Positions 15,302-16,602 of a DNA stretch of 64,000 nucleotides are shown piece after piece. The stretch is from assembly GCF_024298765.1 (NCBI RefSeq), contig NZ_CP101210.1; one strand, given 5' to 3'. The notes beneath the pieces were generated by a model. The model searched no databases, was not told where the DNA came from, and saw nothing but the letters and a program-made list of their open reading frames with translations. Position 1 is the first letter of the stretch. Every line of letters begins with the position of its first letter. Origin of the DNA: Escherichia coli. GTDB lineage: Bacteria; Pseudomonadota; Gammaproteobacteria; Enterobacterales; Enterobacteriaceae. Both the position numbers and the translations under genes were made by a program.

Positions 15302-15853
15302 ATGCAAGATTCCATTCTGACGACCGTAGTGAAAGATATCGACGGTGAAGTGACCACGCTGGAGAAGTACGCCGGTAATGTGCTGTTGATTGTCAATGTC
15401 GCCTCAAAGTGTGGCTTAACGCCGCAATATGAGCAGTTGGAGAATATTCAGAAAGCCTGGGCCGATCGTGGTTTTGTGGTGCTGGGATTCCCGTGCAACC
15501 AGTTTCTGGAGCAAGAACCGGGCAGCGATGAAGAGATTAAAACTTACTGCACCACTACATGGGGGGTGACGTTCCCGATGTTCAGTAAGATTGAAGTTAA
15601 TGGTGAAGGACGCCATCCGCTGTATCAAAAATTGATTGCCGCAGCGCCGACCGCAGTCGCGCCGGAAGAGAGCGGATTCTATGCCCGTATGGTCAGCAAA
15701 GGTCGTGCACCGCTGTACCCTGATGATATCTTATGGAATTTTGAGAAATTTTTAGTTGGCAGGGACGGATTGGTCATCCAGCGTTTTTCCCCGGATATGA
15801 CGCCGGAAGATCCCATTGTGATGGAAAGCATTAAACTGGCGTTGGCAAAATAA
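15302..15853 (+). CDS. btuE: Glutathione/thioredoxin peroxidase BtuE (183 aa)
   Basis: GPx-family motifs ([21 protein letters not shown]); matches BtuE. Confidence 0.94.
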
Positions 15854-16602
15854 TGTCTATTGTGATGCAGTTACAGGATGTTGCGGAGTCTACCCGCCTG
15901 GGGCCGCTTTCTGGCGAGGTTCGGGCTGGGGAGATCCTGCACCTGGTGGGGCCGAATGGCGCGGGTAAGAGTACCTTACTGGCGCGAATGGCCGGAATGA
16001 CCAGCGGTAAGGGAAGCATTCAGTTCGCGGGGCAACCACTGGAAGCATGGTCCGCAACAAAACTCGCGCTGCATCGCGCCTATCTTTCACAACAACAGAC
16101 GCCACCGTTTGCAATGCCGGTCTGGCACTACCTGACACTGCATCAGCACGATAAAACGCGTACCGAACTACTGAATGATGTCGCAGGGGCGCTGGCTCTT
16201 GATGACAAACTCGGACGTAGCACCAATCAACTTTCCGGCGGCGAATGGCAACGCGTACGTCTTGCTGCGGTGGTGCTGCAAATCACACCACAAGCCAATC
16301 CCGCAGGCCAATTGCTGCTTCTTGATGAGCCGATGAACAGTCTTGATGTTGCGCAACAAAGTGCATTAGACAAAATTCTGAGCGCGCTGTGTCAGCAAGG
16401 ACTGGCGATTGTGATGAGCAGTCACGATCTCAACCATACATTGCGTCATGCGCATCGGGCGTGGTTGCTAAAAGGTGGAAAAATGCTGGCCAGTGGACGC
16501 AGGGAAGAGGTGCTCACGCCGCCAAATCTGGCGCAGGCCTATGGGATGAATTTTCGCCGTCTGGATATCGAAGGTCACAGAATGCTGATTTCGACCATCT
16601 GA
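15853..16602 (+). CDS. btuD: Vitamin B12 ABC transporter ATPase (249 aa)
   Basis: Walker [13 protein letters not shown] signature LSGGEWQR, Walker B LLLLDEP; start overlaps btuE stop (TAATG). Confidence 0.95.

Follow-up and report, generated by a model that had tools for sequence, protein, structure and literature searches.

Stop/start overlap junctions of four gene pairs in an Escherichia coli chromosome segment and their bearing on translational coupling

Background

The genes trpB and trpA overlap with a spacing of -1 (UGAUG) and in this resemble btuE/btuD, one of the four gene pairs considered here. They form the classical coupled pair, in which translation of trpA depends on translation of trpB. 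One enzyme contains both TrpB and TrpA as subunits, whereas BtuE lies outside the BtuC2D2 transporter and the btuE/btuD pair is marked as not known to form a complex (PMC10666635).

For overlaps of the ATGA type, the reference set consists of native E. coli pairs with a spacing of -4 that were tested in reporters containing just positions -99 to +30 (Huber et al. 2019/2023). Four of the five pairs were coupled (hyfH-hyfI, astD-astB, ydbH-ynbE and menD-menH), while bioB-bioF showed de novo, independent initiation in spite of its overlap; the contribution of the Shine-Dalgarno sequence (SD) differed between the tested pairs, from essential in some to none in others. The pairs ydiJ/menI, ydhX/ydhU and ydiS/ydiT are like them in combining an ATGA overlap with an SD inside the upstream open reading frame. 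The pairs of Huber et al. were tested experimentally, with an outcome specific to each pair; no published coupling tests of the four described below were found in the literature within reach.

No spacings are commoner than -4 and -1, either in E. coli or across prokaryotes, and 707 of 2,987 co-directional E. coli pairs (24%) are spaced -8 to +6. Coupling peaks in efficiency at spacings of -4 to +3. All four junctions are contained, with equal spacings, in the K-12 table of Huber et al. (2023; PMC10666635, supplementary file 3). They are ordinary, previously catalogued overlaps of E. coli operons.

A close relative of one pair is present in K-12 at a different locus, adjoining the cai genes. 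The spacing pattern of this operon, fixABCX, is like that of ydiQRST (+14/+50/-4 versus +19/+54/-4). The genes fixC (44180-45466) and fixX (45463-45750) overlap by ATGA, with a GGAG 10 nt upstream of fixX as in ydiT; amino-acid identity is 61% for FixC/YdiS and 64% for FixX/YdiT. When the junctions are aligned, ATGA and GGAG stand at equal distance in ydiS/ydiT and fixC/fixX. Retention of this arrangement in the diverged fixC/fixX pair argues that the architecture of the ydiS/ydiT overlap is old and has been kept.

Sequence and annotation

The window (the whole stretch of DNA analyzed, 64,000 nt) is E. coli chromosome with 99.99% identity to strain 104 (NZ_CP029164.1). Over the full alignment it differs from that strain by 4 substitutions, an insertion of 1 nt and a large deletion. 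Gene coordinates are those of the RefSeq annotation of strain 104 projected onto the window; with the exception of sufB and ldtE, the projected genes are intact, with their annotated start and stop codons. A 4-kb query around btuE/btuD matched 5425 of 5426 complete E. coli genomes, several of them at 100% identity.

Gene pairs and junctions

The junctions, the genes that they join and the SD sequences of the downstream genes are as follows.

15302-15853, plus strand: btuE, glutathione/thioredoxin peroxidase, 183 aa, upstream partner (RefSeq; Pfam GSHPx, 1.2e-47)
15851-15855, plus strand: TAATG junction of btuE/btuD, spacing -1 (direct reading, open reading frame list, RefSeq)
15851-15853 and 15853-15855, plus strand: stop codon TAA of btuE and start codon ATG of btuD, with 1 nt in common
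15853-16602, plus strand: btuD, vitamin B12 ABC transporter ATPase, 249 aa, downstream partner (RefSeq; Pfam)
26727-28016, minus strand: ydiS, FixC-like ETF-quinone oxidoreductase, 429 aa, upstream partner (RefSeq; Pfam)
26741-26745, minus strand: GGGAG Shine-Dalgarno sequence of ydiT, within ydiS, 10-nt spacer, -7.6 kcal/mol
26727-26730, minus strand: ATGA junction of ydiS/ydiT (TCAT on the plus strand), spacing -4, ydiT ATG on the ydiS TGA
26437-26730, minus strand: ydiT, FixX-like ferredoxin, 97 aa, downstream partner (FixX match from residue 4)
40728-43784, plus strand: ydiJ, D-2-hydroxyglutarate dehydrogenase, 1018 aa, upstream partner (RefSeq; Pfam)
43769-43772, plus strand: GGAG Shine-Dalgarno sequence of menI, within the ydiJ coding sequence, 8-nt spacer, -6.4 kcal/mol
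43781-43784, plus strand: ATGA junction of ydiJ/menI, spacing -4 (menI ATG 43781-43783, ydiJ TGA 43782-43784)
43781-44191, plus strand: menI (ydiI), hotdog thioesterase, 136 aa, downstream partner (RefSeq; Pfam)
53348-54016, plus strand: ydhX, 4Fe-4S dicluster protein, 222 aa, upstream partner (RefSeq; Pfam)
54003-54006, plus strand: AGGA Shine-Dalgarno sequence of ydhU, within ydhX, 6-nt spacer, -5.6 kcal/mol
54013-54016, plus strand: ATGA junction of ydhX/ydhU, spacing -4, ydhU ATG on the ydhX TGA
54013-54798, plus strand: ydhU (RefSeq name phsC), cytochrome b561-type membrane subunit, 261 aa, downstream partner

The first-pass annotation had placed overlap junctions at these four positions, and direct reading, the open reading frame list and the RefSeq gene ends bear it out. 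Its wording 'ydiT/ydiS' is right as to adjacency and overlap; that order is true for the plus strand only, ydiS being the upstream gene. In all four cases a co-directional stop and start codon overlap, three as ATGA (the -4, NTGA form) and one as TAATG (the -1, TRRTG form). All eight open reading frames are intact in the window, and Pfam domains in seven of the eight proteins, together with the FixX match of YdiT and the RefSeq annotation, mark them as real genes.

These are the only overlaps among the 41 same-strand adjacent pairs of the window; the next tightest pairs are thrS/infC (+3), ydhU/ydhT (+3), pheT/ihfA (+4) and ynhH/pykF (+7). An enrichment of overlaps in the window was considered and rejected: the published E. 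coli rate predicts 9.7 of the 41 pairs to be spaced -8 to +6, and the window has 7. At 10 of the 59 annotated stop codons a start-like codon stands in the -4 or -1 register, and 5 of these 10 open just 4-46 codons. The bare overlap motif carries no information by itself. What is not random is that annotated genes of 97-261 codons, with recognized domains or a conserved paralogue, begin exactly at the overlaps.

Operon structure

Genes that share 1 or 4 nt must be transcribed together, unless the upstream gene contains a promoter. The earlier statement that the overlaps support the operon calls thus holds: the genes leave no space between them for a terminator or promoter, and consensus internal promoters were lacking. 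No terminator-like sites were found at the four junctions, and a consensus scan, which is an insensitive method, returned no sigma-70-like sites on the coding strand of btuC/btuE, ydiJ, ydhY-ydhX or ydiS, the total number of its matches not exceeding the shuffled expectation. Co-transcription of the gene pairs is at the least very highly probable.

The pairs belong to the operons btuCED, ydiJ-menI, ydhYVWXUT and ydiQRST-fadK, and btuCED and ydiQRST-fadK are reportedly described operons. The literature cites ydhYVWXUT as one FNR-activated operon. Arenas 2011 makes no statement on operon structure. A RegulonDB-derived list records transcription factor binding for operon genes that include btuE, a hint of regulation inside btuCED.

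Initiation signals and proposed coupling

For each of the 59 starts in the window, the anti-SD duplex energy of the preceding 22 nt was computed. With -2.6 kcal/mol, btuD ranks 54th of 59 and is effectively without an SD. The values for menI (-6.4 kcal/mol), ydhU (-5.6 kcal/mol) and ydiT (-7.6 kcal/mol) compare with a window median of -6.2 kcal/mol. A weak initiation region is therefore seen in the SD of btuD, while the SDs of menI, ydhU and ydiT are ordinary and have no predicted occluding structure. None of the four local segments (-99 to +30) folds beyond its dinucleotide shuffles, the z-scores being -0.23 for btuE/btuD, +1.50 for ydiJ/menI, -0.38 for ydhX/ydhU and +0.25 for ydiS/ydiT. In the btuE/btuD fold the UAAUG sits in a weak, G-U-rich hairpin of 7 bp.

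All four spacings (-1, -4, -4 and -4) are within the range of efficient coupling (about -8 to +6/+10). A ribosome that ends at the upstream stop codon would be at the downstream AUG or a single base away from it; it could reinitiate there after termination, and synthesis of the downstream protein would thereby be tied to translation of the upstream gene. For btuD, reinitiation from the btuE stop is probably the main route of initiation, since the gene has no SD and, across Enterobacterales, starts directly at the btuE stop. The SDs located 6-10 nt upstream of menI, ydhU and ydiT probably help to retain the 30S subunit or permit some independent initiation. As these SDs are ordinary and have no predicted fold that would occlude them, independent initiation would be possible too, and coupling of the three genes is likely to be partial.

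Four of the five tested -4 pairs were coupled and bioBF was not, and an overlap thus raises the prior for coupling without establishing it. Linked translation of all four pairs is only suggested by the overlaps. Substantial coupling of btuD to btuE is nevertheless considered likely, and that of menI, ydhU and ydiT, each taken singly, somewhat more probable than even. The first-pass annotation took the junctions as indicating translational coupling; this remains plausible, with positive comparative support for btuD only, and is an inference rather than a demonstration. As a whole, the junctions are probably best explained as ordinary operon overlaps with coupling by termination and reinitiation.

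All four pairs are marked 'CMPLX not' (not known to form complexes) in the K-12 table (PMC10666635), which leaves the usual rationale of stoichiometry unestablished. Judged from domain content, YdhX (4Fe-4S) and YdhU (cytochrome b561) are plausible as partners in a complex, as are YdiS (ETF-QO/FixC-like) and YdiT (FixX-like). BtuE (a peroxidase of the GSHPx family) has no functional relation to BtuD (an ABC ATPase), nor has YdiJ to MenI.

The btuE/btuD junction in Enterobacterales and in E. coli

The junction was compared in a single scan of species-representative genomes, with WNFxKF (BtuE) and GPNGAGK (BtuD) as anchors at a gap of 185-215 nt. The yield was at least 120 Enterobacterales species loci, and the 30-nt anchor range under-samples large spacers. 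Among the matches listed, 61 of 120 species have the nearest in-frame btuD start at -1 relative to the btuE stop, 25 at 0, 24 at +1 to +7 and 10 at +15 or more, which places the btuD start at -1 to +7 in 110 of 120. The -1 class, again among the matches listed, includes Escherichia, Citrobacter, Enterobacter, Klebsiella, Kluyvera (as TGATG), Kosakonia and others; a spacing of 0 is found in many Pantoea, Pectobacterium and Brenneria, one of +1 to +3 in Cedecea, Pluralibacter and Erwinia, and spacers of 15-26 nt in most Serratia (7/8), Ewingella and Hafnia.

Gene order is the same elsewhere in Enterobacterales, and Serratia adds an explicit AGGAG-type SD in a longer spacer. Among the matches listed, the Serratia spacers read AGGAG or AAGGAG, strong AGGAG is confined to spacers of at least 15 nt, and SD energies average -3.5, -3.4 and -2.9 kcal/mol for the close classes versus -7.2 kcal/mol in the class of at least +15. 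The p-value for the dependence of SD energy on spacing class among these matches (Mann-Whitney p = 1e-5) is inflated by the small number of independent lineages; the class of at least +15 is, among the matches listed, essentially Serratia, Ewingella and Hafnia, and one of its members looks frameshifted. Such a pattern would be expected for SD-independent reinitiation where the genes abut and de novo initiation where they are separated. A stronger form, in which btuD of E. coli and most Enterobacteriaceae would have no SD of its own and be translated almost wholly by ribosomes terminating on btuE, is a tentative reading with somewhat less than an even chance.

Within E. coli, a 61-nt query over the btuE/btuD junction matched 5271 of 5426 genomes, 3406 of them identically, and TAATG is intact in the three variants sampled. 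In one of these, E. coli EC21Z-137 (NZ_CP101233.1, 1996894-1996992), a GAA codon of btuE, equivalent to about position 15824 of the window, is changed to the nonsense codon TAA. BtuE is thereby shortened by 9 residues, and 26 nt now separate its stop from the downstream btuD ATG. This strain is a natural analogue of a premature-stop coupling experiment.

Alternative explanations

The overlaps could be a neutral by-product of gene packing, with each downstream gene initiated de novo at its own SD. ATGA evolves easily, since the start codon gives three of its four bases, and a review considers ease of evolution the probable source of the abundance of -4 spacings. The motif occurs at 10 of 59 stops by sequence alone, bioBF initiates independently despite its overlap (Huber et al. 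2019/2023), menI, ydhU and ydiT have SDs of average strength with no sequestering structure, and no complex is recorded for any of the four pairs (PMC10666635). This reading is nevertheless rather unlikely: btuD lacks an SD for de novo initiation and has acquired one, among the matches listed, just where the spacer is long; the -4 junction and its SD position are retained in fixC/fixX; and four of the five tested E. coli -4 pairs are coupled (Huber et al. 2019/2023). Coupling might instead proceed by RNA unfolding, upstream ribosomes melting a structure that locks the downstream ribosome binding site. This is one of the two accepted models of coupling, and the hairpin around the UAAUG of btuE/btuD fits it. 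The z-scores given above speak against it, no local segment from -99 to +30 being more stable than its shuffles; sequestration by RNA structure at the junctions was rejected on this ground, and the unfolding model is given little probability.

There are two further alternatives. Were the downstream genes driven mainly by promoters inside the upstream genes, the overlaps would be uninformative on operon and coupling. Internal promoters are reported for about half of E. coli operons (PMC12083536), btuE is among the operon genes with transcription factor binding in the RegulonDB-derived list, and the consensus scan is insensitive; yet that scan gave no coding-strand match in the four upstream regions and a total within the shuffled expectation, and ydhYVWXUT is treated as one FNR-dependent unit. 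Such promoters are a very improbable main source of expression. The other alternative concerns btuD only, for which BtuD would truly start at ATG 15865 or GTG 15862 and the btuE/btuD overlap would be an annotation artefact. Both codons are in frame in E. coli (GTG at +8; ATG, which is Met5, at +11), an in-frame start at +8 or +11 is kept by 51 of the 61 species of the -1 class among the matches listed, and BtuD of Serratia, which has a clear SD, starts at a position corresponding to codon 4 in E. coli. However, in 113 of 120 species among the matches listed no start codon of the open frame precedes the one nearest to the btuE stop, five species among these matches have no alternative start up to +17, and ATG or GTG at -1 is kept although codons 2-4 vary freely. 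Length changes in the N-terminal stretch of BtuD are multiples of 3 (MSIVMQL, MPLMQL, MLMQL), as for translated sequence, the 11-nt stretch before Met5 is also without an SD, and spacings of +8 and +11 would still be inside the coupling range. The structures 1L7V, 2QI9 and 4FI3 in the PDB use a BtuD of 249 aa, which reflects the constructs and not the native N-terminus. The annotated btuD start (15853) is supported by the species comparison; an artefactual overlap is unlikely, and Met5 is a minor alternative.

Other features of the window

Relative to strain 104, 5053 nt are absent between positions 46192 and 46193 (open reading frame 45366-46640), and the result is an in-frame fusion of codon ~262 of sufB to codon ~186 of ldtE. 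The deletion takes out the 3' part of sufB, sufC, sufD, sufS, sufE and the 5' part of ldtE, and with them the sufC/sufD and sufD/sufS overlaps of the reference. There is no microhomology at the sufB/ldtE breakpoint, and contiguous deletion flanks were found in 0 of 5426 complete E. coli genomes. The junction may reflect a deletion specific to this strain, an error of assembly or editing of the sequence. One extra T relative to strain 104 is located at position 33921, in the ydiF-aroD intergenic region.

The start of fadK (minus strand) differs between annotations. The K-12 tables give ATG 26434, a protein of 566 aa and a ydiT/fadK spacing of +2; RefSeq PGAP gives ATG 26380, 548 aa and +56. A GC-rich hairpin at 26404-26424 (CAGGCCCGCATCTCGGGCCTG) is located within the disputed extension and favors the shorter form. 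The ydhY stop TGA (50508-50510) is preceded by a G, so that it reads GTGA (50507-50510), with GTG in the ydhV frame. From this GTG, ydhV would have 708 codons, versus 700 from the annotated ATG 50531 (spacing +20, AAGGA SD). GTG 50507 is a possible alternative, overlapping start of ydhV; the annotated ATG looks better.

The start of ydhT is 3 nt past the ydhU stop (54796-54804) and its SD is almost absent (-1.7 kcal/mol). Within ydhYVWXUT, ydhT appears as good a candidate for reinitiation as the listed overlaps. The thrS stop and infC start are 3 nt apart (8767-8773), and the start codon of infC is the unusual ATT. Two tandem tRNA-Val genes, with ~92% mutual identity, occupy 57769-57927 on the minus strand, downstream of ydhR.

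Biological significance

In a well-studied region of E. coli, the junctions bear out the gene calls and the assignment to operons, and their significance is small: they add four further candidates to a phenomenon already documented genome-wide. The single modestly useful product is the comparative picture of btuE/btuD, in which the SD is absent when the genes abut and present when they are separated. The gene btuE is reportedly dispensable for B12 transport. If btuD is indeed translated almost wholly by ribosomes that terminate on btuE, then btuE would also be a translational relay that sets BtuD output. The lineages with spacers of at least 15 nt (Serratia, Ewingella and Hafnia) would in that case have evolved AGGAG in compensation, a natural trade-off between abutting genes and an SD. 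The pair would lend itself well to a study of SD-independent reinitiation at a native -1 (UAAUG) overlap, and the picture may bear on the matching of BtuD to BtuC in the BtuC2D2 transporter.
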